DNA of 32,000 bases from Nitrosopumilus sp. (GTDB lineage: Archaea > Thermoproteota > Nitrososphaeria > Nitrososphaerales > Nitrosopumilaceae), in assembly GCF_965263415.1 (NCBI RefSeq), contig NZ_OZ253671.1, positions 1,292,347-1,324,346 on the forward strand. The letters run 5' to 3'. The position numbers and the translations under genes are program-made. Below, piece by piece: positions 1,640 to 18,970 of the stretch (positions are counted from its first letter, which is position 1; the number at the start of each line of letters is the position of its first letter). Below the pieces are notes generated by a model that saw only the letters and a list, made by a program, of their open reading frames with translations, searched no databases and was not told the origin of the DNA.

Positions 1640-2350
1640 TTGATACATGGTCCATCATTAGCAATAGGTGCAGTAATTTCTGCAGCAGTTTTAGTTATTG
1701 TTTTTTGGAGTTTTGATGGAATTTCTAATGAATCAGAACTAGTAATGCAACCAACTCCAACAATTCAACCAGAAGGGCCTGCAAAAGTAACAATGGAGAC
1801 ATTTTTGGCCAATGGGTCTCCCATATTAGGAGATTCTAATGCTCCAATCACATTAGTTGAATTTGGAGATTATCAATGTCATTTTTGTAATGTTTTTTTC
1901 CATTCAACTGAGGACGATATTTTGAAAAATTATGTGGATACAGGTAAAGTAAGAATGATCTTCAAAGATTACAACATTATTGGTCCAGATTCCATTAATG
2001 CATCACATGGGGCACATTGTGCAAATGATCAGGGAATGTTTTGGGAGTATCATGATATTTTGTATAATAATTGGACAGGAGAGAATAACGGATGGGCCTC
2101 ATCAGAAAACTTACTACGATTTGCACAAGAAATTGGATTAGATGTAGATGTATGGTCTGAATGTATGATTAATGGTGTTCATTCAAAGACTATTGTTGCA
2201 AGTAATGATGATGCAAAAGCACTAGAACTTACGGGAACCCCTGCATTTTTTGTGATAGGGCCTGACGGTAAAGTTACAAGATTGTTTGGAGCACAGCCAT
2301 ATGAGACATTTGAGAATACTTTTGAGACAGAATTAGAAAAACAAAGTTAA
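1640..2350 (+). CDS. Membrane-anchored DsbA-family thiol:disulfide oxidoreductase
   Basis: N-terminal TM helix, then a thioredoxin fold with CHFC active site (FGDYQCHFC) and GTPAFFV near the C-terminus, typical of DsbA/Thioredoxin_4 proteins. TTG start. Confidence 0.75.
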   Translation: MIHGPSLAIGAVISAAVLVIVFWSFDGISNESELVMQPTPTIQPEGPAKVTMETFLANGSPILGDSNAPITLVEFGDYQCHFCNVFFHSTEDDILKNYVDTGKVRMIFKDYNIIGPDSINASHGAHCANDQGMFWEYHDILYNNWTGENNGWASSENLLRFAQEIGLDVDVWSECMINGVHSKTIVASNDDAKALELTGTPAFFVIGPDGKVTRLFGAQPYETFENTFETELEKQS

Positions 2351-6559: not shown

Positions 6560-7246
6560 TCATTTAAGCAGTGTTTTCAAATCAATGTTCTTTTTGAAGA
6601 TTCTATTTAGGGATGCATCACTCATATCTTTGATAAATGGGATAGAGCCTAGAACCTTGACTCCTGTGAGATTCTGCAAATCTCGTTTCAAGTTTTTGAT
6701 TGGGTAACCACAATCATCAAAATCATTAATGATTATTCCTTTGACTGGGATTTTGTATTTTTCACACATCTTAATTGTCATTATTGTGTGATTTACAGTT
6801 CCAACCTTACTTCGAGTTACAATTACGGTGGGAATTTTCATTTCTTTAATCAGGTTTGTAATGTAATAGTCTTTGAGAATAGGAGTCATTATTCCACCCA
6901 TTCCTTCTACAAGAATCATTTCATGAAGTTTAGATAATTTTTTGAAACTAGATAGAATGGTAGAAATTTTTGGTTTTGTTTTTAGATTCTTCCAAGCAGT
7001 GTAAGGTGATGCAGGAATTGGAAAGAACTGGGGGTTTATCAAATTTTCAGGATCAGATGTTTGTGCAGCTCTTGCTAAAATTTCAATATCTTCAGATTTG
7101 TAACCTTTTTTCTGTGCAGCACCTGCTGCAAAAGGTTTCATTACACCAACATCTACATTCATTTTTCGTAATGCAACTGCCAATCCTGATGTGATGTATG
7201 TTTTACCAACATCAGTATCAGTTCCAGCAACAAAAATGGATTTCAT
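6560..7246 (-). CDS. bioD: Dethiobiotin synthetase
   Basis: 228 aa. N-terminal P-loop FVAGTDTDVGKT and a downstream EGMGG motif typical of BioD. Confidence 0.85.
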   Translation of the reverse strand: MKSIFVAGTDTDVGKTYITSGLAVALRKMNVDVGVMKPFAAGAAQKKGYKSEDIEILARAAQTSDPENLINPQFFPIPASPYTAWKNLKTKPKISTILSSFKKLSKLHEMILVEGMGGIMTPILKDYYITNLIKEMKIPTVIVTRSKVGTVNHTIMTIKMCEKYKIPVKGIIINDFDDCGYPIKNLKRDLQNLTGVKVLGSIPFIKDMSDASLNRIFKKNIDLKTLLK

Positions 7247-7326
7247 CAGAGATATTTTTAGAATATTCCATTGATTAACTCATCGGTTGGACTATATTGT
7301 TAAAAATATCCATGAGAAAGTGAATC

Positions 7327-7512
7327 ATGACAGAAAATTTTCAAGATTCTAAAAAATACGAGACAGTAACAATAGAATCCAAAGTCAGAGAAGGTGTTTT
7401 TCATAAAGTCATTAAAGACTTGGAAAGTGGAAAAGCAGTATCTTGTTCATGTAAGTGTTGGAGTAAAGGTAGAAAAGCCTGTGCTGCTATGAGAAGTATA
7501 GGGGTTGAATAA
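7327..7512 (+). CDS. Cys-rich small hypothetical protein inside the biotin cluster
   Basis: 61-aa ORF with a CSCKCWSKGRKAC cluster. Lies between bioD (divergent) and bioA. Confidence 0.35.
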   Translation: MTENFQDSKKYETVTIESKVREGVFHKVIKDLESGKAVSCSCKCWSKGRKACAAMRSIGVE

Positions 7513-7563
7513 TTTTCAACAATAATCGGATAATTATTAAGATCTGATATCCGAGTAAATCAG

Positions 7564-8877
7564 TTGAAAAGTTCTGTTTGGCATCCAAATACCCAAATGA
7601 AGGAATGGGATTCATTTGATAAAATTACCAAGGCCAAAGGTGTGTGGCTTGTAGACTCTAAAGGTCACAAAATGATTGATGCTGTTGCCTCTATGTGGTG
7701 TAATGTTTGGGGACATTCTAATCCTCAATTGGTGAGATCAATTACAAATCAAAGTAAAAAACTGCAACATTCTTCCATGTTCAACATTACAAACGAGCCT
7801 GCAGAACAACTTGCAGATAATCTTGTGAAAATATCTCCAGGAATGCATAAGGTGTTCTATTCAGATAATGGTTCATCGGCAATGGAGATTGCAATCAAGA
7901 TTGCATTACAATATTGGAAAAACATTGGAGATAGAAAAACAGAGATTGCAACTGTAGAAAATGGATATCATGGAGACACATTTGGGGCCATGTCAGTAGG
8001 GTACGTTCCGGAATTTTTTGGCAAGTTCAAAAAACAATTATTCAAAACAATACAATTTCCAGTTCCAAACAAATACAGATTACCAAAAGGATACGCAATA
8101 TTGGATTATCAAAATCAATGCCTTGAAAAAATAGAGAATGAGTTTTCAAAAAATGACAGTATTGCCGCGTTTGTGATGGAAAGCGGTGCACAGATGGCAG
8201 GCGGTGTTATTATTTATCCAAAAGGATTTCAAAAAAAGATTAGTCAATTATGTAAAAAGTATAACGTATTGTTTGTACTAGATGAGATTGCAACAGGATT
8301 TGGAAGATTAGGATCAATGATACAATATCAAGAACAAAAATCCATTCCAGATATTGTAGCATATGGAAAAATGTTGACTGGAGGATATCTTACAATGGCA
8401 GCTACTCTTGTAAATAAAAAAATCTATGATTCATTTTTAGGAGAATTTAATGATTGGAGGCATCTTTTCCATGGACATACATACACTGGAAACCCTCTTG
8501 CAGCATCAGTTGCAAATGAGAACATCAAAATGTACAAGAAAAACAATCTAATTAAAAAAATTCAAAAAACATCCAAAGTGTTTGAAGAATATTACAATGA
8601 AATCTCGGAAATTGACATCGTAGGAGATATCAGACACAAAGGAATGTTAATGGGAATTGAACTAGTCACAGACAGAAAGAAAAAGACCCCAATTCACCCT
8701 AAAAAATCAATCAACAAAATATTCTATGAGACAGGAAAGAAAAACGGAATTTATCTTAGAACTTTAGGAAACATAATCATGCTAGTGCCCCCTTTGGTAA
8801 TATCAGAAAAGGAGTTAAATTTACTCCTAAAGAACACCATCAAGACCATTCAAGATGCAAAATCACAAGTAATCTAA
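7564..8877 (+). CDS. bioA: Adenosylmethionine-8-amino-7-oxononanoate aminotransferase
   Basis: 437 aa. VWHPNTQM N-terminal block (compare IWHPYTSM of E. coli BioA) and class-III aminotransferase motifs (DEIATGFGRLG, YGKMLTGGY). Upstream in-frame stop at 7531-7533 leaves TTG 7564 as the only start before the conserved block. Confidence 0.9.
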   Translation: MKSSVWHPNTQMKEWDSFDKITKAKGVWLVDSKGHKMIDAVASMWCNVWGHSNPQLVRSITNQSKKLQHSSMFNITNEPAEQLADNLVKISPGMHKVFYSDNGSSAMEIAIKIALQYWKNIGDRKTEIATVENGYHGDTFGAMSVGYVPEFFGKFKKQLFKTIQFPVPNKYRLPKGYAILDYQNQCLEKIENEFSKNDSIAAFVMESGAQMAGGVIIYPKGFQKKISQLCKKYNVLFVLDEIATGFGRLGSMIQYQEQKSIPDIVAYGKMLTGGYLTMAATLVNKKIYDSFLGEFNDWRHLFHGHTYTGNPLAASVANENIKMYKKNNLIKKIQKTSKVFEEYYNEISEIDIVGDIRHKGMLMGIELVTDRKKKTPIHPKKSINKIFYETGKKNGIYLRTLGNIIMLVPPLVISEKELNLLLKNTIKTIQDAKSQVI

Positions 8878-8950
8878 CTGTTAACCCCCTATAGGCTCAA
8901 AGGTTAACCTTTCCATTATTGTTATAAATGGAAAATATCTGTGTTAGATT

Positions 8951-9931
8951 GTGAGCACACTAGAGTTCATCAAAGAATGTCAAGAAAAAGTATTTTCAGG
9001 AAATCATATTACTGCAGAAGATGCTGAAAAACTGTTAAACATTCCTGAAGAAAATCTCAAAGATTTAGCAAGATGTGCAAATGAAATAACTCGAGATTTT
9101 AATGGAGAAAAGGTAGATGTTGAACAACTAAACAATATTAAGAAAAATGCATGTAGTGAAGACTGTACATTTTGTGGTCAGTCTGCATTCTTTGACACAG
9201 GTATAGATACATATCAATTACCATCACCAGAAGAAGTTGTATCAAAAGCTCAAAAAGCAAAAGAAGAAGGTGCAGAATCATATTGTCTTGTTGCAGCATG
9301 GAGAGAGCCATCAAAAACGGATTTTGAAAAAGTTTGCAAGATTATAACTGAAATTAATGACAAAGTAGGAATCAGTGTTGAATGTAGTTTAGGATTTCTC
9401 ACACAAGAACAAGCAAACAAACTCAAAGATCTCAAAGTAAAAAGATACAATCATAATTTAGAGACAGCAAAATCAAAATTCCCAGAAATATGTACCACCC
9501 ACACATATGAAGACAGATTAAAGACATTAGGAATTGCAAGAGATGCCGGTTTAGAATTATGTACAGGTGGAATTATCGGGTTGGGAGAAACTAGAGAGCA
9601 AAGACTAGAATTAACATTGGAATTAGCAAGATTATACCCTGAAGAAGTAACAATCAATATTTTGGTACCCGTTCCAGGTACTCCTTTGGAATTACAAACA
9701 GACTTGGCAAATTCTGAAATTGTCAGAATGTTTTCAGTGATTAGATTTTTACTTCCAGAGTCAGTGATTAAAATCTCCGGCGGAAGAGAAACCAACCTGG
9801 ATGATTCAGGCGAGGAATTACTTCAAAGTGGGGCAAATGGAATCATTACCTCAGGATACCTTACCATGGGAGGTAATGAAGCTCAAAAAGACCTGCAAAT
9901 GATTGAAAAAATAGGTCTTAAATCACAATAA
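8951..9931 (+). CDS. bioB: Biotin synthase (radical SAM)
   Basis: 326 aa. CSEDCTFCGQS is the CxxxCxxC radical-SAM motif. Auxiliary-cluster positions present (YCLVAAW, VECSLG, LELCTGGIIGLGET, SGGRE). GTG start with a TATAAA box about 25 nt upstream. Confidence 0.9.
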   Translation: MSTLEFIKECQEKVFSGNHITAEDAEKLLNIPEENLKDLARCANEITRDFNGEKVDVEQLNNIKKNACSEDCTFCGQSAFFDTGIDTYQLPSPEEVVSKAQKAKEEGAESYCLVAAWREPSKTDFEKVCKIITEINDKVGISVECSLGFLTQEQANKLKDLKVKRYNHNLETAKSKFPEICTTHTYEDRLKTLGIARDAGLELCTGGIIGLGETREQRLELTLELARLYPEEVTINILVPVPGTPLELQTDLANSEIVRMFSVIRFLLPESVIKISGGRETNLDDSGEELLQSGANGIITSGYLTMGGNEAQKDLQMIEKIGLKSQ

Positions 9932-9984
9932 AAAATCAACAGTAACAGTTGTTGAAATAGACATTCAAAAAATTTTATTTTAAA

Positions 9985-10719
9985 CTAATTACACACGGTA
10001 AAGTTATCGTCATTATCATCATACAGATGTTGAATAGCATCTATATGACATTCAGATATGTATGGAATTTCAGTAAGAATCATACTTGACATCAAATCAT
10101 CTGAATCAATAGAATGGCCTAGACCAAGAGCATGTCCAAATTCATGTCTTATGATAGTTGTTAAATCATCAGCAGATAATTTTTCTACATCATAAATTAC
10201 AATATGAGATTGTAAAATTTCACGATCATGAGTCATGATTCTAGCATATCCAGAATATCCATCAGACTCTTTATAATTTGAAAATTGAATTACAATGTTA
10301 TTTTCATTACTTAATGTAGAAACAATGTTGAATTTTGCAGGAATATTGTTTTTAGTATCAATATTTTTAGCAGCAGTTAATGCACCTTCCCAACCCAAAT
10401 AATAGGTGGATTTTGAATTTACCAAGTTATCATTGGATGGATTATCTAATTCAATTGTGTCATGAGATGTTAACGCATAAACAACTGCATCAAGTTGTTC
10501 ATCAGTTAACAGATGACTACCTAAAAAGACAACATCTAGTTCTTCATGGGGTAAAACATTCCAAAATGCAGAAGTGATGATTCCGTTTTTTTCAAGAGAA
10601 AGGAATTTGGATGTTAATGGTGCAACTGCATCAGTATCTTGGATAAAACCAGATAATGAGATCATCAAAAATCCTGCCAACATACAAGAGAAGACTTTGG
10701 AATTTAGTCTGATTTTCAT
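9985..10719 (-). CDS. Secreted zinc metalloprotease, matrixin-like metzincin (M10)
   Basis: 244 aa. Signal peptide, then HEFGHALGLGHS (HExxHxxGxxH) followed by a Met-turn candidate DDLMS. Confidence 0.8.
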   Translation of the reverse strand: MKIRLNSKVFSCMLAGFLMISLSGFIQDTDAVAPLTSKFLSLEKNGIITSAFWNVLPHEELDVVFLGSHLLTDEQLDAVVYALTSHDTIELDNPSNDNLVNSKSTYYLGWEGALTAAKNIDTKNNIPAKFNIVSTLSNENNIVIQFSNYKESDGYSGYARIMTHDREILQSHIVIYDVEKLSADDLTTIIRHEFGHALGLGHSIDSDDLMSSMILTEIPYISECHIDAIQHLYDDNDDNFTVCN

Positions 10720-10726
10720 ATTTTTG

Positions 10727-10784
10727 ACCTATTTCCCAAAGTTGGGAATAAGGTATAAAGTTACCTATTTCCCAAAGTTGGGAA
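10727..10784. promoter_or_regulatory. Two identical 22-bp elements (ACCTATTTCCCAAAGTTGGGAA), 36 bp apart, flanking a TATA box; candidate operator
   Basis: Copies at 10727-10748 and 10763-10784. Each contains TTCCCAA-AG-TTGGGAA (7-nt inverted arms; cores 10733-10748 and 10769-10784). TATAAA at 10754-10759 (TTTATA on the minus strand) lies between them, about 37 nt upstream of the protease ATG at 10719. Confidence 0.5.
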
Positions 10785-10888
10785 CTACATTTAGGCGTAA
10801 AACAGCGTGCCTGAAATGGATGTAAACAGAAAATAGAAGAGATCGCCTTCCTATAGGCATATAAGATTTCAGCAATCAAAATTAGACC

Positions 10889-12013
10889 TTGAAGAAAAAA
10901 TTGAAATTTGTGGATGCAGAATTGCTTGAAATTAAACAAAACAACCTGTATAGAAAATTAAAGTTTGGGAAAATACAAAAGGAATCCATTACAATTAACG
11001 GTAAAAAATTATTAAATTTGTGTTCAAATGATTATCTTGGATTACCAGTAACTAAACTACAAACAAACCAACTTCAATCAAGTTCAAGATTAGTTTCAGG
11101 AAATGATGAATCATACTTAAAACTAGAAAAAGAGCTTGCAAAACACAAATCCCAACAAAACAGTTTGATTTATCCTACAGGATACATGGCAAATCTTGGT
11201 TCAATTTCTGCAATTGCAAAAAAAGGAGATTTAATTCTAAGTGACGAATTAAATCATGCAAGTATTATAGAGTCATGCAAATTAACAGATGCCAAAGTTT
11301 CAGTGTACAGACATAATGATATGCAAGATTTACAATCTAAATCAAAACAAAAAGCACAAAACAAGTTTATCATAACTGAAGGAATATTTAGCATGGATGG
11401 AGATGTATCACACTTAAAACAAATTACAGAGATTGCAGAGAAAACCAATGCGATAACAATTGTAGATGATGCACATGGCGATTTCGTAGTAGGAAAAGAC
11501 GGAAAAGGAACACCAAATTATTTTAACGTTGGGAAAAAAATTGATTTGTATGTTAGTAGCTTAAGTAAGGGATTAGGATCATTTGGAGGATACATTGCAG
11601 CACAAAATAATGTGGTTGATTTGTGTATAAACAAATCAAAGTCATTCATTTACACATCAGCACTGCCATCACTTTTAGTAAAACATTCTCTAAAGCGATT
11701 CAAATCAAATAGAGAAAAACAAAGAAAAAAACTAGAAAAAAATACAAAATCATTAGCAAAAGGCCTCAGAGAGATAGGTTTTGAGATAAACTCAGAATCT
11801 CAGATAATTCCAATAATTATAGGAAAAGAAAAGTTAGCCATGGACTTTGGTAAATTCTTATTTGAAAATGGAGTATTTGCACAGCCCATAAGATATCCTA
11901 CAGTACCAAAGAATCAAGCCAGATTGAGGATTTCAGTCACAGCATGGCTAAATGACAAGGATGTTGAGAGAGCCTTTGAGATATTTGAAAAAGCATACGT
12001 AAAATTCTGCTAA
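10889..12013 (+). CDS. bioF: 8-amino-7-oxononanoate synthase
   Basis: 374 aa. N-terminal ..NNLYRKL, PLP-enzyme blocks (SNDYLGL, DDAHG, SSLSKGLGSFGGY with the PLP lysine). TTG start with CATATAAG about 25 nt upstream. Confidence 0.85.
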   Translation: MKKKLKFVDAELLEIKQNNLYRKLKFGKIQKESITINGKKLLNLCSNDYLGLPVTKLQTNQLQSSSRLVSGNDESYLKLEKELAKHKSQQNSLIYPTGYMANLGSISAIAKKGDLILSDELNHASIIESCKLTDAKVSVYRHNDMQDLQSKSKQKAQNKFIITEGIFSMDGDVSHLKQITEIAEKTNAITIVDDAHGDFVVGKDGKGTPNYFNVGKKIDLYVSSLSKGLGSFGGYIAAQNNVVDLCINKSKSFIYTSALPSLLVKHSLKRFKSNREKQRKKLEKNTKSLAKGLREIGFEINSESQIIPIIIGKEKLAMDFGKFLFENGVFAQPIRYPTVPKNQARLRISVTAWLNDKDVERAFEIFEKAYVKFC

Positions 12014-12214: not shown

Positions 12215-12949
12215 ATGGCAGAGATAAGTCTAGCAGTTGCAGCATTGGCAGGACTAGGTTCATTTGTTGCACCATGTATCTTGCCCATGATTCCTGCATT
12301 TCTTGCATATCTTTCAGGAACTACACTTTCAGAATTAAACCAAAAAGATGGAACAAAGACAGTTTCAATTAACAGAGCAAACATTATCCTAAACTCTGTA
12401 TTCTTTGTACTTGGATTTTCTGTAGTTTTTTCAACATTAGGAGTAATAATCAACAGTACACTTTCATCAACGTCAGGAGAGATAGTAGATGGATTTAACC
12501 AGATAGGGGGAATAATCATTATCGGATTTGGGATATTCTTACTTCTTTCAATGAAGATAAACAAATTAAATTTAGAAAAGAAATTTTTCCCAAAAAGATC
12601 AAAGGCAAGTTATCCAATGTCATTTGTTTTTGGTTTGGCATTTGCAGCAGGTTGGACTCCATGTGTTGGACCAATATTAGGAACAATACTTACGCTTGCA
12701 GCAACAACACCATCAGTTGCATTCAATTTACTTTTAGTATATTCATTGGGATTAGGAATTCCATTTATCTTAATTGGAGTGTTTTATTCTAGAGCAAGTA
12801 AAATAATTCGTTCAATGAATAAACATCTAAAATATTACAACATAGTTCTTGGCGGATTCATTATAGCATTAGGAGTTCTAGTATACACGAATCAACTAGC
12901 ATATATTGCAAACTTTCCACTTCTCAATGAACTGTTACTACTAGGGTGA
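12215..12949 (+). CDS. ccdA: CcdA/DsbD-family transmembrane thiol-disulfide electron transporter
   Basis: 244 aa, polytopic. The two signature Cys-Pro motifs are present: APCILPMIP and WTPCVGP. Confidence 0.85.
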   Translation: MAEISLAVAALAGLGSFVAPCILPMIPAFLAYLSGTTLSELNQKDGTKTVSINRANIILNSVFFVLGFSVVFSTLGVIINSTLSSTSGEIVDGFNQIGGIIIIGFGIFLLLSMKINKLNLEKKFFPKRSKASYPMSFVFGLAFAAGWTPCVGPILGTILTLAATTPSVAFNLLLVYSLGLGIPFILIGVFYSRASKIIRSMNKHLKYYNIVLGGFIIALGVLVYTNQLAYIANFPLLNELLLLG

Positions 12950-12953
12950 TGAA

Positions 12954-14054
12954 ATGAAATCAGAAATTAAAACAGCAATTATTCTTGCAGCAGTAATAGG
13001 AATAGGAATCACGGCCCTAAGTTTGTCATTTTCAACACTTGATCAGCCTAGTGTTTCACACATGTCAAATGATGACTCAAGTACTATAGACAAGTCTGGA
13101 TTCAAAAAAGCACCTGACTTGGTAGGAATTGCTCACTATCTGAATACAACTCCTGAAGAATTAACACAAGAAATTGAAGGCAAAGTAGTGCTGTATGACA
13201 TTTGGACATATAGCTGCATTAATTGTATCAGAACTCTACCATACATCACAGCTTGGGATGACAAATATGCTGATCAGGGATTGTTAATTGTTGGAGTACA
13301 TTCTCCAGAATTTGAATTTGAAAAAGTTCCTGAAAATGTACAAATGTCAATTGAAAAACACGGAATCAATTATCCAGTTGTCATGGATAATGACATGGAG
13401 ACTTGGAAAGCATTTGAAAACAGATACTGGCCAAGAAAGTACATTGCAGATCATGAAGGGTACATCAGATATGATCATATTGGAGAGGGAGGATATCAAG
13501 AAACTGAAAAAATCATTCAACAATTAATCAAAGAAAGATCTGATGCATTAGGAATTCAAATGGCATCTGCCTCATCACTAGTAGATATTGAAGAGTTTGA
13601 GCATTCGTTGTTTAGAACGCCAGAATTGTATTTCGGGTATTACTTTGCACAAAACAGAAATCAGTTAGGAAGTGAAGAGGGATTCCAACCAGAAAAAACA
13701 GTTGTGTATGAAGAGTCAGATAAAATAGAATTGCACAAGTTCTATCCAATTGGAACGTGGCAAAACCACGAAGACAGTATGGAGTTAATTTCTGAAGAAG
13801 GAGAGATAAAGTTACTGTACAATGCAAAAGAAGTAAACATTGTTACTGCAAACAATGCTGAACTTGAGATTTATCTTGATGAGGAATCATTACCAGCACA
13901 ATACTCTGGTAATGACATTACATCTGGAAATATTCTAAGTGTGTCTGAACCAGGATTATACAACATCATTACCAGTGAAGAGAGTGCGTCTCATGTATTG
14001 GAGATAAAAGTCAAGGGTAAAGGATTTCAAATATTCACATTTACCTTTGGATAG
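12954..14054 (+). CDS. Membrane-anchored thioredoxin-like protein, DipZ C-terminal type (Trx domain plus extra beta-rich C-terminal domain)
   Basis: 366 aa. TM anchor, WTYSCINCIRTLPY (CxxC), GVHSPEFEFEK and YWPRKYI blocks as I recall them from DipZ-type proteins, then about 170 aa of extra domain. Starts 4 nt after ccdA. Confidence 0.8.
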   Translation: MKSEIKTAIILAAVIGIGITALSLSFSTLDQPSVSHMSNDDSSTIDKSGFKKAPDLVGIAHYLNTTPEELTQEIEGKVVLYDIWTYSCINCIRTLPYITAWDDKYADQGLLIVGVHSPEFEFEKVPENVQMSIEKHGINYPVVMDNDMETWKAFENRYWPRKYIADHEGYIRYDHIGEGGYQETEKIIQQLIKERSDALGIQMASASSLVDIEEFEHSLFRTPELYFGYYFAQNRNQLGSEEGFQPEKTVVYEESDKIELHKFYPIGTWQNHEDSMELISEEGEIKLLYNAKEVNIVTANNAELEIYLDEESLPAQYSGNDITSGNILSVSEPGLYNIITSEESASHVLEIKVKGKGFQIFTFTFG

Positions 14055-14144: not shown

Positions 14145-14795
14145 ATGCTAAGTAACTCTTGGAACAACACAGGGGGAGAAAGTATTTCCCAAAAAGTCAT
14201 GGGAAAAGTAAAGCCTGATGAGCCACTAAAGAACAAAATCGACTTTGCGCAAAAAAAATTACAGTTTCAAATTACAAAATTAGATGGAATTAATGAAAAA
14301 TTACGAGTAAAACATGATCAGATTTTTGAAAAAATAGTTTCTGCTCATAAAAGTAACAAAGGTGCTTATGCTCAAGCATATGCAAACGAACTAGCTCAAG
14401 TAAGAAAGATGAAAAACATGGTAAGTGGTGCCAAACTTTCAATGGAGCAAGTCAAACTTAGACTAGATACAGTATCAGAATTAGGAGATGTAGTAGTCAC
14501 ACTCAGTCCATGCATGTCAATAATTAAGGGATTAGCCCCATCACTTAACGGAATTATGCCAGAGGCAAACGCATCAATGCAAGACTTGTCATCAGTACTT
14601 GGTGATGTAATGTCAGGCTCATCAGTAGAGTTAGGAGATTCTATGAGTGTCGGTCCAGAAACCAACGCAGATACATTGGCAATCTTAGAAGAAGCACAAG
14701 GTGTCATTGCCGGTCAAACAAAAGCATCAATTCCAGATGTTCCAGATTCTCTCAAACAACAAATTGTTGAGAAGAAAACAGACATCTTTATCTAA
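14145..14795 (+). CDS. cdvB: ESCRT-III / CdvB-family cell-division protein paralog (no C-terminal winged helix)
   Basis: 216 aa. IFEKIVSAH..AYAQAYANELAQVRKMKN...MEQVKLRLDTVSELGDV..LSPCMSIIKGL aligns by eye with my recollection of Sulfolobus CdvB (DLFEKVIRSQ..IYAQEISDIRKM..IEKVRLKLDTVQELQGV). Confidence 0.8.
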   Translation: MLSNSWNNTGGESISQKVMGKVKPDEPLKNKIDFAQKKLQFQITKLDGINEKLRVKHDQIFEKIVSAHKSNKGAYAQAYANELAQVRKMKNMVSGAKLSMEQVKLRLDTVSELGDVVVTLSPCMSIIKGLAPSLNGIMPEANASMQDLSSVLGDVMSGSSVELGDSMSVGPETNADTLAILEEAQGVIAGQTKASIPDVPDSLKQQIVEKKTDIFI

Positions 14796-15082: not shown

Positions 15083-15382
15083 ATGAGTGATGAGAAAAGT
15101 CCTTGGGTGCTTGTAAGTAATGTTTCAAAAGATACCAATCCACAAGATCTAGAAAGAATTGCTCCACAAATCTCAACACTTGTTGATGAATGGCAATCTC
15201 AAGGAAGAATTATGTGGTCAGGTGCGTTTGATAACCAAGTATCATCAATGGCCGTGTTTGAAGCAACAGAAGAAGAAGCAAAAGAGTTTTTCAAAAAATA
15301 TGAAAGTATTTGTTCTGGTGTTTTGGGTTATTATCTCTATAAATGGGATGCAATGCCAATTCTTTCAGTTCTAGCAAAGTAA
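15083..15382 (+). CDS. Hypothetical protein, possibly YciI-like alpha/beta fold
   Basis: 99-aa ORF. The pattern GRIMWSGAF...MAVFEATEEEAKEF is reminiscent of YCII-type proteins, but the similarity is weak. Confidence 0.45.
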   Translation: MSDEKSPWVLVSNVSKDTNPQDLERIAPQISTLVDEWQSQGRIMWSGAFDNQVSSMAVFEATEEEAKEFFKKYESICSGVLGYYLYKWDAMPILSVLAK

Positions 15383-16218: not shown

Positions 16219-18525
16219 ATGACAAAAACTAGCCTAGTAATATTTATGGCAGCAATCATGGTTGTCGGTACAGTTGGAATGAATCTAATTCCAAATGCTG
16301 AAGCACTAAAATCTCAAGGTACTGTTTCATCAAGTACAGATATCTGTGGATTAATGCTATGTTCTGAATACCCAGGCGGAAAAACAGCATACGAAGATGA
16401 ATGGGCAAAAATGTTCATACCATCAATTTATGGAGTTACAGCAGAAACTAAAACTGTTGAAATAAAACAAGTTTATGTTTCAGATCACAATGCTGATAAA
16501 GAATTCCCAGCCAAGCTAGATGTTTTTATCCACAAATTTGAGTTGGACAAAATATCATCTGATGAAGCATTAGATGGTATAATGGAGACGCATCAACAAT
16601 ACAAATCTGCTAGAATATCTAATGATATTATTGATGGCGTAGGTGAAAAACTTAATCACTACAATAGAGGAACATTGAATGTCGAAGAAGCTATCGAATC
16701 AATCCATTTGACAGCTGAACCACAAAATGTCAATCCTGAGTATCAGGGTGCATTAGATGAAGTGATTCACATGTTCGAGAAAGATGCAATATCAGCTGAT
16801 GAAGCTATTGATGGAATCAAAGAGACACATGCAGGCTTTGTTGATTTGTACATCACATCTGATCTTATTGAAGCAGTAGATGTAATCATTGGTCACATCG
16901 ATTCAGGTAAACTATCTGGAGCAGATGCAGTTGAAGCAGTTCACTTGACAGCTGAACCACAAAATGTCAATCCTGAGTATCAGGGTGCATTAGATGAAGT
17001 GATTCACATGTTCGAGAAAGATGCAATATCAGCTGATGAAGCTATTGATGGAATCAAAGAGACACATGCAGGCTTTGTTGATTTGTACATCACATCTGAT
17101 CTTATTGAAGCAGTAGATGTAATCATTGGTCACATCGATTCAGGTAAACTATCTGGAGCAGATGCAGTTGAAGCAGTTCACTTGACAGCTGAACCACAAA
17201 ATGTCAATCCTGAGTATCAGGGTGCATTAGATGAAGTGATTCACATGTTCGAGAAAGATGCAATATCAGCTGATGAAGCTATTGATGGAATCAAAGAGAC
17301 ACATGCAGGCTTTGTTGATTTGTACATCACATCTGATCTTATTGAAGCAGTAGATGTAATCATTGGTCACATCGATTCAGGTAAACTATCTGGAGCAGAT
17401 GCAGTTGAAGCAGTTCACTTGACAGCTGAACCACAAAATGTCAATCCTGAGTATCAGGGTGCATTAGATGAAGTGATTCACATGTTCGAGAAAGATGCAA
17501 TATCAGCTGATGAAGCTATTGATGGAATCAAAGAGACACATGCAGGCTTTGTTGATTTGTACATCACATCTGATCTTATTGAAGCAGTAGATGTAATCAT
17601 TGGTCACATCGATTCAGGTAAACTATCTGGAGCAGATGCAGTTGAAGCAGTTCACTTGACAGCTGAACCACAAAATGTCAATCCTGAGTATCAGGGTGCA
17701 TTAGATGAAGTGATTCACATGTTCGAGAAAGATGCAATATCAGCTGATGAAGCTATTGATGGAATCAAAGAGACACATGCAGGCTTTGTTGATTTGTACA
17801 TCACATCTGATCTTATTGAAGCAGTAGATGTAATCATTGGTCACATCGATTCAGGTAAACTATCTGGAGCAGATGCAGTTGAAGCAGTTCACTTGACAGC
17901 TGAACCACAAAATGTCAATCCTGAATACATGGGAGCTTTAGACGAAGTTCTACACGAGTATGAGTTAGATGGCACATCAGCAGATGATGCATTAGCAGAA
18001 ATCATCGAAATTCATGAGGGATTTACAGGATTATACATTACCTCTGAAGTCATTGAAGATGCAGGTATACAACTTAACATCTACGATACTGGTAATGTTT
18101 CTGTAGAACATGTAATTCATGAAATTCATGAAGTGATTGAAGATGCAGAACTTGCTGCAGCAGCTGCAATGTCTGATACGGGTATTCCAGTAATGAAAGA
18201 ATTGCCACCAAATCATGTCGATATACCAGTAGGTTCTGGTGTACCAGGATGTGAGGTAGATGATTGGTGTTACATGCCAGCTGATCTACATGTTCATGTT
18301 GGAGACACAGTAACATGGGTTAATTCTGATTCACTGCCACATACAGTAACTTCAGTTAGTTCTACAGGAGCAGAAAAACCTACACCTGAGGATGAAGATG
18401 GATTGTTTGATAGTGGTTTCATGTCTGGCGGCGATGAATGGTCTTATACATTCGACGTTGAAGGAGAATACTACTACTATTGCCAATTGCATCCATGGAT
18501 GGAAGGCGAAGTAACCGTTCAGTAG
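16219..18525 (+). CDS. Secreted or membrane-anchored tandem-repeat protein with C-terminal type-1 blue copper (amicyanin-like cupredoxin) domain
   Basis: 768 aa. N-terminal hydrophobic signal/anchor (aa 1-29). Seven ~79-aa acidic His-containing units (aa ~94-640; the middle five are identical). C-terminal ~110 aa (18193-18522) has ligand motifs LPHTVTS and YYYCQLHPWMEGEVTVQ (C-x2-H-x2-M, as in amicyanin CTPHPFM). TTTAAAT box about 27 nt upstream. Confidence 0.85.
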   Translation: MTKTSLVIFMAAIMVVGTVGMNLIPNAEALKSQGTVSSSTDICGLMLCSEYPGGKTAYEDEWAKMFIPSIYGVTAETKTVEIKQVYVSDHNADKEFPAKLDVFIHKFELDKISSDEALDGIMETHQQYKSARISNDIIDGVGEKLNHYNRGTLNVEEAIESIHLTAEPQNVNPEYQGALDEVIHMFEKDAISADEAIDGIKETHAGFVDLYITSDLIEAVDVIIGHIDSGKLSGADAVEAVHLTAEPQNVNPEYQGALDEVIHMFEKDAISADEAIDGIKETHAGFVDLYITSDLIEAVDVIIGHIDSGKLSGADAVEAVHLTAEPQNVNPEYQGALDEVIHMFEKDAISADEAIDGIKETHAGFVDLYITSDLIEAVDVIIGHIDSGKLSGADAVEAVHLTAEPQNVNPEYQGALDEVIHMFEKDAISADEAIDGIKETHAGFVDLYITSDLIEAVDVIIGHIDSGKLSGADAVEAVHLTAEPQNVNPEYQGALDEVIHMFEKDAISADEAIDGIKETHAGFVDLYITSDLIEAVDVIIGHIDSGKLSGADAVEAVHLTAEPQNVNPEYMGALDEVLHEYELDGTSADDALAEIIEIHEGFTGLYITSEVIEDAGIQLNIYDTGNVSVEHVIHEIHEVIEDAELAAAAAMSDTGIPVMKELPPNHVDIPVGSGVPGCEVDDWCYMPADLHVHVGDTVTWVNSDSLPHTVTSVSSTGAEKPTPEDEDGLFDSGFMSGGDEWSYTFDVEGEYYYYCQLHPWMEGEVTVQ
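16708..17924 (+). repeat. Perfect tandem repeat, period 237 bp, 5.1 copies, in-frame within the CDS
   Basis: Landmark GCTGAACCAC recurs at 16714, 16951, 17188, 17425, 17662 and 17899. The printed sequence lines are identical after a 3-nt shift per 240 nt. Identity breaks at 16707 (T vs C) and 17925 (A vs G). Diverged units flank both sides. Confidence 0.95.
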
Positions 18526-18607: not shown

Positions 18608-18970
18608 ATGCCAGCCAAAGGCCCTGTTAGTATGACATGGCAAACAATTTTCTGTTTTATTCCAATAGCAGACATTGTTGCATCATACAGAGTCAAAAGA
18701 TTTCGATGGTACATGGCAATAATGCTTGCATGGGCAGCAGTCTCAACAGGAATACAAATGGTAGTGTATCCATTTGAAGAAAATTCTATTTATTCAGCAA
18801 AAGTATTCTCAGAAGAAACAGGATTCAGTTGGGGATATGCACTTTTAGGACAAAATCCAGAATTAGGAATTGTTATGATAATAGTGCATAGTGTAGTCAC
18901 ATATGCAATTGCAGTCTATCTAATTAGAAGATACTCAAAGAAATGGAATCTTCAATTCAATAACCAATAG
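18608..18970 (+). CDS. Hypothetical multi-pass membrane protein
   Basis: 120-aa ORF with about 3 hydrophobic segments (TIFCFIPIADIV, YMAIMLAWAAVSTGIQMVV, GIVMIIVHSVVTYAIAVYLI). Confidence 0.5.
   Translation: MPAKGPVSMTWQTIFCFIPIADIVASYRVKRFRWYMAIMLAWAAVSTGIQMVVYPFEENSIYSAKVFSEETGFSWGYALLGQNPELGIVMIIVHSVVTYAIAVYLIRRYSKKWNLQFNNQ

Follow-up and report, generated by a model that had tools for sequence, protein, structure and literature searches.

The described systems closest to the gene analysed here are found among zinc-acquisition proteins and copper proteins. Streptococcal Pht histidine-triad proteins are extracytoplasmic, carry repeated His motifs (HxxHxH, in beta-rich domains) and deliver Zn2+ to a binding protein of the ZnuA family. 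ZnuA proteins themselves (Pfam family PF01297) possess a loop rich in His and in Asp/Glu, which classically consists of 12-50 disordered residues. With micromolar affinity, this loop takes up additional Zn2+, which it was proposed to pass on to the primary site (PMC4542158). The gene in question lies at positions 16219..18525 of a 32,000-nucleotide stretch of DNA from Nitrosopumilus sp. (assembly GCF_965263415.1, contig NZ_OZ253671.1, positions 1,292,347 to 1,324,346), which we call the window, and encodes a protein of 768 amino acids (aa) in which an acidic, His-bearing repeat array precedes a type-1 copper domain, or cupredoxin.

How does this locus compare with ZnuA? The archaeal array is likewise rich in His and Asp/Glu, and four ZnuA proteins fill their loop with a homologous module. 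Whereas the classical loops are disordered, the modules considered here are predicted to be structured tandem helix-turn-helix elements, and their arrays span 110-290 residues in the bacterial proteins versus 553 in the window protein. Unlike ZnuA, the archaeal array stands outside a solute-binding protein, lacks poly-His runs, is fused to a cupredoxin and has no znu genes nearby. The resemblance to Pht proteins is a functional analogy only, with no sequence or fold relationship. Helical rods and solenoids (spectrin-like, HEAT-like or designed) are also built from helical tandem units that run nearly continuously into their neighbours, but the unit of this array has four helices derived from two hairpins and matches none of them significantly.

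On the copper side, two N. maritimus structures, 9cck and 5fc9, are the nearest solved relatives of the C-terminal domain, and the amicyanins come next. Amicyanin has the same ligand loop, C-x2-H-x2-M. The purple cupredoxin 5fc9 shares the fold but has Arg at the axial position, where the window domain keeps Met. Amicyanin and 5fc9 are single domains of about 100 aa and 9cck is the C-terminal cupredoxin domain of a multicopper oxidase; none of the three has an N-terminal repeat array.

The protein itself was previously deposited, under a generic name only (WP_428324237.1, "cupredoxin domain-containing protein [Nitrosopumilus sp.]" at NCBI), and a literature search found no paper describing the repeat. 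What is new here is the definition of the module, the structured replacement of the ZnuA His-rich loop and the tandem fusion to an archaeal cupredoxin.

The repeat array and its cupredoxin

The gene is divided as follows, with coordinates in the window and the basis of each assignment in brackets.

16219..18525, plus strand: whole gene, apparently secreted 768-aa repeat-cupredoxin protein WP_428324237.1 of Nitrosopumilus sp. (open reading frame (ORF) and database identity)
16219..16305, plus strand: Sec-type signal peptide, aa 1-29, with K3, hydrophobic aa 4-21 and N-A-E-A; cleavage predicted after A29 (-3/-1 rule)
16336..16410, plus strand: small N-terminal Cys-loop domain, aa 40-64, C43-G-L-x-L-C48-S-E-Y-P-G-G-K...W62 (invariant residues; predicted local distance difference test (pLDDT) 65-73)
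16411..16470, plus strand: low-confidence spacer, aa 65-84 (pLDDT below 50)
16471..16707, plus strand: first, diverged 79-aa unit, aa 85-163, with H21, H41 and H79 kept (unit hidden Markov model (HMM))
16708..17892, plus strand: five DNA-identical 79-aa units, aa 164-558, each of four helices, probably hairpin A (canonical His-hairpin module) plus hairpin B (degenerate copy) (0 mismatches, Tandem Repeats Finder, AlphaFold, homology to bacterial modules)
17893..18129, plus strand: last, diverged unit, aa 559-637, of the five-His type (columns 21, 41, 73, 76 and 79; ...VEHVIHEIH) (unit HMM and sequence)
18130..18213, plus strand: linker, aa 638-665; the last helix (629-652) extends to aa 652 and is followed by a disordered tether (pLDDT <50 at aa 649-659)
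18214..18522, plus strand: amicyanin-like type-1 cupredoxin, aa 666-768, with the Cys pair C678/C684 (PF00127, ligands, PDB and Foldseek matches)

Tandem Repeats Finder reports a period of 237 nucleotides (nt) at 16708-17948 (5.2 copies, 99% matches, score 2438). Cut at the LTAEPQNVNPEY register, the protein falls into seven 79-aa units, the five central ones being 100% identical in DNA over 1185 nt. Each identical unit contains 4 His, 1 Met, 9 Asp and 8 Glu, 3 Lys and no Cys, exactly the counts given in an earlier note made from the sequence (about 17 Asp/Glu). Over the whole protein, 153 Asp and Glu stand against 31 Lys and Arg, with 35 His, for a net charge of about -122.

AlphaFold models a pair of units, with a 42-row alignment, at a pLDDT of 95 and a predicted template-modelling score (pTM) of 0.83. 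Each unit is predicted to form four helices (unit positions 5-24, 30-45, 52-65 and 71-82), and a one-residue break separates helix 4 from helix 1 of the next unit. The full-length model (pLDDT 77, pTM 0.49) consists of a moderately confident part at aa 40-64, a disordered stretch at aa 65-84, helices over aa 92-652, a disordered tether of some 15 residues between array and cupredoxin (about aa 653-665) and a beta-sandwich cupredoxin. A unit is best read as two copies of a helix-turn-helix module with the core [IV]-H-x-[FW]-E-x-[DG]-x-I-S-x-[DE]-E-A-[LI]-x-x-I, the first canonical and the second degenerate.

The repeat matches no named domain, as the earlier note had stated. No Pfam family covers it, PF00127 being the sole Pfam domain of the protein, and a PDB sequence-profile search with the repeat gave no match below E = 0.01. 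Its comparison to the PDB by Foldseek returned no significant known fold (best E 0.36, template-modelling (TM) score 0.29 or less); the best, non-significant neighbours were the designed helical repeats DHR4 and BRIC1 and the HEAT domain of eIF2B-epsilon. With the full-length model, Foldseek found cupredoxins only.

Several candidate families were examined and rejected. DUF6892 (PF21832) collects 38.1 bits when summed over the repeats, with 0 stretches passing individually. SHOCT and SHOCT-like families (PF20612 and PF22746) reach 15.9 and 14.4 bits versus cutoffs of 24 and 27, again with no individually significant stretch, and DUF6468 and similar Pfam rows are summed sub-threshold matches produced by repetition. 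The loop H-E-W-E-D-G-D-I-S-A-E-E resembles positions 5, 6, 8, 9 and 12 of the EF-hand loop (D-x-D-x-D-G-x-I-x-x-x-E); no EF-hand Pfam family matched at E <= 1, the fold match to CDPK1 was non-significant (E = 0.48), and the unit and module HMMs scored about 0 bits against calmodulin.

The identity of the C-terminal domain leaves little doubt. PF00127 matches aa 683-768 (E = 4e-12, 46.8 bits versus a cutoff of 21.2), and the copper ligands H708 (18340-18342), C755 (18481-18483), H758 (18490-18492) and M761 (18499-18501), which align to those of amicyanin, form an H...C-x2-H-x2-M set that is invariant in 48 homologues. The type-1 copper domain proposed in the earlier note is thus secure. C678 and C684 are also invariant in the full-length alignment. 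In the AlphaFold model the beta strands at aa 666-767 form a Greek-key beta-sandwich, for which Foldseek retrieves 5fc9 (E = 2.8e-6, target TM 0.82) as well as amicyanins; the corresponding PDB sequence matches are 9cck (3.5e-16), 5fc9 (5.5e-16) and amicyanins (about 1e-12). The best NCBIfam model is amicyanin TIGR02657, at 49.8 bits under a curated cutoff of 110.2, and no match to mau (methylamine dehydrogenase) genes occurs among the scanned ORFs of the window. We therefore class the domain as amicyanin-like in its ligand spacing, and not as an amicyanin equivalog.

At the other end, the protein starts with one Lys, a hydrophobic stretch of 17-18 residues and N-A-E-A. This is the sole hydrophobic segment of the protein, and the earlier note took it for a signal anchor. 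It looks instead like a cleavable Sec signal, since the -3/-1 rule fits the AxA site: A29 is invariant and A27 nearly so in the full-length family alignment, and the motif A[ED]A is found in 65 of 80 homologues. No C-terminal anchor or cell-surface anchor motif is present in the 768 aa. Apart from the presumed cleavage, the architecture initially described (secretion helix, acidic His-bearing repeats, cupredoxin) is borne out by the ORF, unit and domain analyses. The small Cys-loop domain that follows the signal has C43, G44, C48, Y51, G53 and W62 invariant in the full-length alignment, and a search with it retrieved only fragments of the same family, with no repeat-less orthologue.

Bacterial relatives of the module

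A HMMER profile of the unit was scored exhaustively against 1.84 billion representative proteins and gave 28 matches in total. Members or fragments of the archaeal family account for 23 of them. The other five are all linked to Znu: P0098 (E = 1.5e-12), P0099 (2.9e-11), P0102 and P0103 (8e-5) and P0105 (9e-4). The first four are ZnuA-family proteins (PF01297, E about 1e-75), two of which are named "zinc transport system substrate-binding protein" by IMG. At the position of the His-rich loop, directly before DPH[IV]W, they hold 2-6 tandem modules such as IDHIIHEWEDGDISAEEALEEIDELIH, flanked by runs of the HDDHGDEH type. P0105, from Chloroflexi, has 157 aa, comprising a signal peptide, two modules and a hydrophobic helix at its C-terminus.

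Gene order points in the same direction. P0105 is the last gene of a fur-znuA-ABC_tran-ABC-3-P0105 series (L001), and P0098 lies in the order fur-P0098-ABC_tran-ABC-3-ribosomal L33 (L004):

L004 5761-5925: ribosomal protein L33 gene, directly after fur-znuA(P0098)-znuC-znuB

An L33 gene after fur-znu genes is typical of Zur-controlled zinc-sparing paralogues, and its presence here strengthens the zinc-limitation context of P0098. A word-indexed search for the bacterial module yielded 8 small stand-alone proteins. In L027, the divergent stand-alone relative P0108 comes after a 490-aa ZnuA, and such adjacent 490-aa ZnuAs also hold degenerate modules before DPHLWLD.

Could this similarity reflect shared composition? 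Controls for residue order consisted of 200 shuffles per bacterial insert, plus reversed sequences. With the archaeal HMM, the bacterial inserts obtain 37-68 bits, the shuffles at most 7 bits and the reversed sequences <1 bit; as the controls lose the score, the match is not compositional. The archaeal unit thus has an order-specific similarity to the module [IV]-H-x-[FW]-E-D-G-x-I-S-A-E-E-A-L-x-x-I. In hhalign comparisons calibrated with 100 column shuffles, the bacterial module aligns with archaeal half A at a score of 30.1 (P = 1.5e-7, probability 94%; null 7.0 +/- 1.6; reached by 0 of 100 shuffles) and with half B at 18.5 (P = 1.6e-4, probability 51%; null 6.4 +/- 1.4; 0 of 100). On this profile evidence, we consider that the archaeal module is homologous to the hairpin module of the ZnuA loops. 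Chance is hard to invoke, since every non-archaeal match among 1.84 billion proteins is a zinc-uptake protein.

These comparisons also bear on the internal structure of the unit, which the earlier note described as a duplication giving 14 half-repeats. Compared directly, halves A and B show a marginal similarity (score 9.1, P = 0.042, probability 1.25%; null 5.5 +/- 1.2; 1 of 100 shuffles reaches the score). The two-copy reading is retained because the bacterial module matches both halves and all three profile comparisons agree in register; the half-repeats are thus supported indirectly, by way of the bacterial module, and much less by direct comparison.

Conservation, copy number and possible function

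The family is narrowly distributed. It occurs in 21 of 185,579 species-representative genomes, all of them Nitrosopumilus or Nitrosopumilaceae, and N. maritimus is not among the 21. The unit HMM counts 3 units in 40 of 80 homologues, 4 in 16, 5 in 10, 6 in 8, 7 in 5 and 8 in one, with a period of exactly 79 aa throughout and the reading frame kept; the exhaustive profile search adds forms with 1 and 2 units. Middle units are often 100% identical inside one protein and share a mean identity of 77% across proteins, which indicates that arrays expand or homogenise independently in each lineage. Several short-read assemblies have a contig break within the array (L013, L018, L019, L022 and L023), so unit counts from short-read assemblies are unreliable. 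The repeat itself is real, because independent complete chromosomes display the same pattern: L005 has 7 units (adjacent-unit DNA identity 0.996, 1, 1 and 1) and L006 has 5 (identity 1 and 1).

Three His columns per unit are family-wide, namely 21, 41 and 79. H21, H79 and E76 are each present in 115 of 115 unique archaeal middle units, acidic columns are conserved, and the hallmark His of the bacterial module, invariant in 17 of 17 modules, corresponds to H21. The fourth His of the window unit, in column 63, is lineage-specific (12 of the 115 units). The earlier note held that two module-terminal His are kept in all units: H21, H41 and H79 are indeed conserved columns, but the positions are not equivalent between the two halves, being offset by 3 residues.

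By analogy with the ZnuA His-rich loop, we propose that the protein carries a low-affinity, high-capacity His/carboxylate metal-recruiting array tethered to a type-1 copper domain, a reading to which we would assign a probability of roughly 0.45. The array would present a His/carboxylate surface that recruits divalent metal in the pseudo-periplasm. Cu(II) would be favoured, since the array is fused to a cupredoxin and sites of this kind generally prefer that ion, with Zn(II) as a possibility. The metal would then be handed to a high-affinity acceptor, for which the attached cupredoxin, a transporter or a different copper protein are candidates. Capacity or reach would depend on how many units the array has (3-8 in relatives), a number that could change quickly through recombination between identical 237-nt units. 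The earlier note had already suggested a copper buffering or delivery module attached to its client. The occurrence of the same module in ZnuA loops and in a protein of a fur-znu operon, together with the invariance of H21, H79 and E76, speaks for such a role; part of the His pattern does not, and the metal could be zinc.

Several observations weigh against this proposal. At column 41, 96 of the 115 middle units have His and 19 (17%) have Tyr, and the pairs H41/Y48 and Y41/T48 covary near-perfectly (92 versus 19 middle units); such covariation implies contact between the two side chains, a useful restraint for structural modelling, and the switch looks like packing compensation. In the terminal unit, His occupies all of columns 21, 41, 73, 76 and 79 or none of them (Y, Y, F, E and D/V instead), apart from a few intermediate forms, and the zero-His type forms one clade of 18 proteins. 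The poly-His flanks of the ZnuA arrays, lacking in the archaeal protein, could be the true ligands, the hairpins serving as mere scaffold. The similarity to the bacterial module spans about 28 columns, and convergence on a short helix-turn-helix, though improbable, could account for it. Finally, the archaeal gene has no ZnuA domain, and neither a metal transporter nor a regulator was found beside it among the scanned ORFs. The joint loss of five His from the terminal unit was considered as evidence for one site and set aside, since a single clade represents about one event.

The strongest rival, which the earlier note had also raised, is a length-tunable rigid stalk: units would keep the cupredoxin at a fixed spacing from an attachment point (for instance the membrane, the S-layer or a partner complex to which the Cys-loop domain binds), their number would determine the reach, and the His would have packing or capping roles. 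We regard it as rather unlikely as a full account. A well-ordered, all-helical array with near-continuous helices between units (pLDDT 95, pTM 0.83 in AlphaFold), a copy number moving from 3 to 8 in exact 79-aa steps and fold neighbours that, while non-significant, are designed helical repeats and HEAT-like domains are all what a stalk would give, as are the packing-like swap from H41/Y48 to Y41/T48 and the loss of the terminal-unit His in one clade. Yet the invariant AxA predicts removal of the only hydrophobic segment, and there is no C-terminal anchor. A stalk also leaves unexplained the homology to ZnuA-loop modules, the znu-adjacent genes and the invariance of H21, H79 and E76 in 115 middle units. 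One family member, P0091, has units but no cupredoxin to hold out:

L031 4001-4831: P0091, a complete family member without cupredoxin, with a signal peptide and a CGLELCSEYPGG Cys-loop domain, as well as two identical units, each about 88 aa long and bearing HH motifs

This single complete case suggests that the repeat has a role of its own; a purely spacing function is unlikely where no domain is there to be held. P0091, which IMG wrongly annotates as a LytR/AlgR response regulator, lies among housekeeping genes on a 22-kilobase (kb) archaeal contig. The stalk and metal-recruiting readings are compatible and not mutually exclusive.

Is length variation itself the selected trait? In that case, the protein would be a rapidly varying exposed one, encoded by a contingency locus and serving evasion of viruses or grazers or changes in surface properties, with a repeat that has no specific ligand. 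We find this improbable. Units often 100% identical in one protein versus 77% across proteins do imply recent independent expansions or gene conversion, and insertion-sequence disruptions in two species indicate that the gene is dispensable in some lineages. However, about 77% identity between proteins with many invariant columns would be unusual under selection on length only, no cell-surface anchor motif is present, and the Znu-linked homologues are left unexplained. The disruptions concern two Nitrosopumilaceae genomes:

L009 5157-6404 and L025 4811-6256, minus strand: transposase-like ORFs (415 aa and 481 aa, differing) that split the gene in its last unit

The two insertions are independent, occupy similar positions and part the repeat array from the cupredoxin.

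More improbable still is an electrostatic cation reservoir or docking surface, in which the strongly negative charge (about -122) would serve to enrich cations such as NH4+, or guide the cupredoxin towards a basic redox partner. The excess of Asp and Glu (153 versus 31 Lys and Arg) and the conservation of acidic columns agree with this idea, but we found nothing specific to it; it explains neither the conserved His nor the Znu link, and the bacterial relatives reside in metal-uptake proteins, not in ammonium systems. Lastly, an assembly artefact, the five perfect copies arising by mis-assembly or over-collapse of a different true gene, is very improbable: short reads cannot resolve perfect 237-nt repeats and several short-read contigs do end in the array, but independent complete chromosomes (L005 with 7 units, L006 with 5) share the structure and 80 homologues vary by exact 79-aa steps with the frame kept.

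Gene neighbourhood and copper acquisition

The gene lies among housekeeping genes: biotin synthesis, DsbA-like, DsbD-like membrane, thioredoxin-like, Snf7, DUF371, the proteasome alpha subunit and ribosomal proteins. A subset of genomes retains the order DsbD-Trx-Snf7-...-gene-m120-...-DUF371-PsmA. Individual features of the window are listed below.

517-572 and 8041-8085: two short imperfect tandem repeats, with periods of 28 and 22 nt and about 2 copies each (Tandem Repeats Finder)
1640-2350, plus strand: DsbA-like protein, further upstream
6560-12013: biotin-synthesis cluster, with dethiobiotin synthetase-like AAA_26, class-III aminotransferase, radical-SAM/BATS BioB-like protein and class-I/II aminotransferase
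9985-10719, minus strand: matrixin-type peptidase inside the biotin cluster
12215-12949, plus strand: DsbD/CcdA-like membrane protein
12954-14054, plus strand: 366-aa thioredoxin/redoxin protein
14145-14795, plus strand: Snf7 (ESCRT-III/CdvB-like) gene, about 1.4 kb upstream
15083-15382, plus strand: 99-aa ORF upstream of the gene, without Pfam match; possible partner or regulator
18608..18970, plus strand: 120-aa multi-pass membrane ORF, 82 nt past the stop codon; possible partner (ORF list)

The DsbD/CcdA-like and redoxin genes are 2-4 kb upstream, and the repeat protein has two invariant Cys pairs. In N. viennensis, dsbD rose under copper limitation (PMC7785015). The 120-aa membrane ORF, for which a Pfam scan gave no match, is kept beside the gene in L005, L010, L013 and L016. 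The 99-aa ORF is found upstream of the gene in L005, L007, L009, L012, L017, L018 and L022, even where the wider synteny differs. As for Snf7, the cdvB gene of N. maritimus (Nmar_0816) adjoins Nmar_0815, a putative orthologue of the window gene at best. Iron limitation is reported to raise the level of Nmar_0815, a plastocyanin (PMC12974425).

If the proposal is carried further, the His-hairpin module would be a true metal-binding domain of bacteria and archaea that had gone unrecognised, and the Nitrosopumilus array an extracytoplasmic copper antenna or chaperone that captures scarce Cu(II) and loads, or is redox-serviced by, the tethered type-1 domain. We hold this extended version to be tentative, and on balance doubtful. 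Marine ammonia-oxidising archaea run nitrification on copper enzymes, and free copper is extremely scarce in the water they inhabit. For the way in which ammonia-oxidising archaea take up copper, published work describes the routes as "not well understood" (PMC7785015). Were the extended version true, no dedicated copper-acquisition component of marine ammonia-oxidising archaea would have been identified before this protein, whose capacity would be set by a fast-evolving number of units.

A blue-copper carrier joined to a repeat that is otherwise found only in bacterial zinc-acquisition proteins is a concrete candidate for extracytoplasmic metal capture. The repeat itself represents a new small domain, outside Pfam and solved structures, that turns the normally disordered His-rich loop of ZnuA into a structured array. 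As the repeats are perfect over 237 nt, the number of units becomes a strain-level variable that may be compared with metal availability in the ocean.

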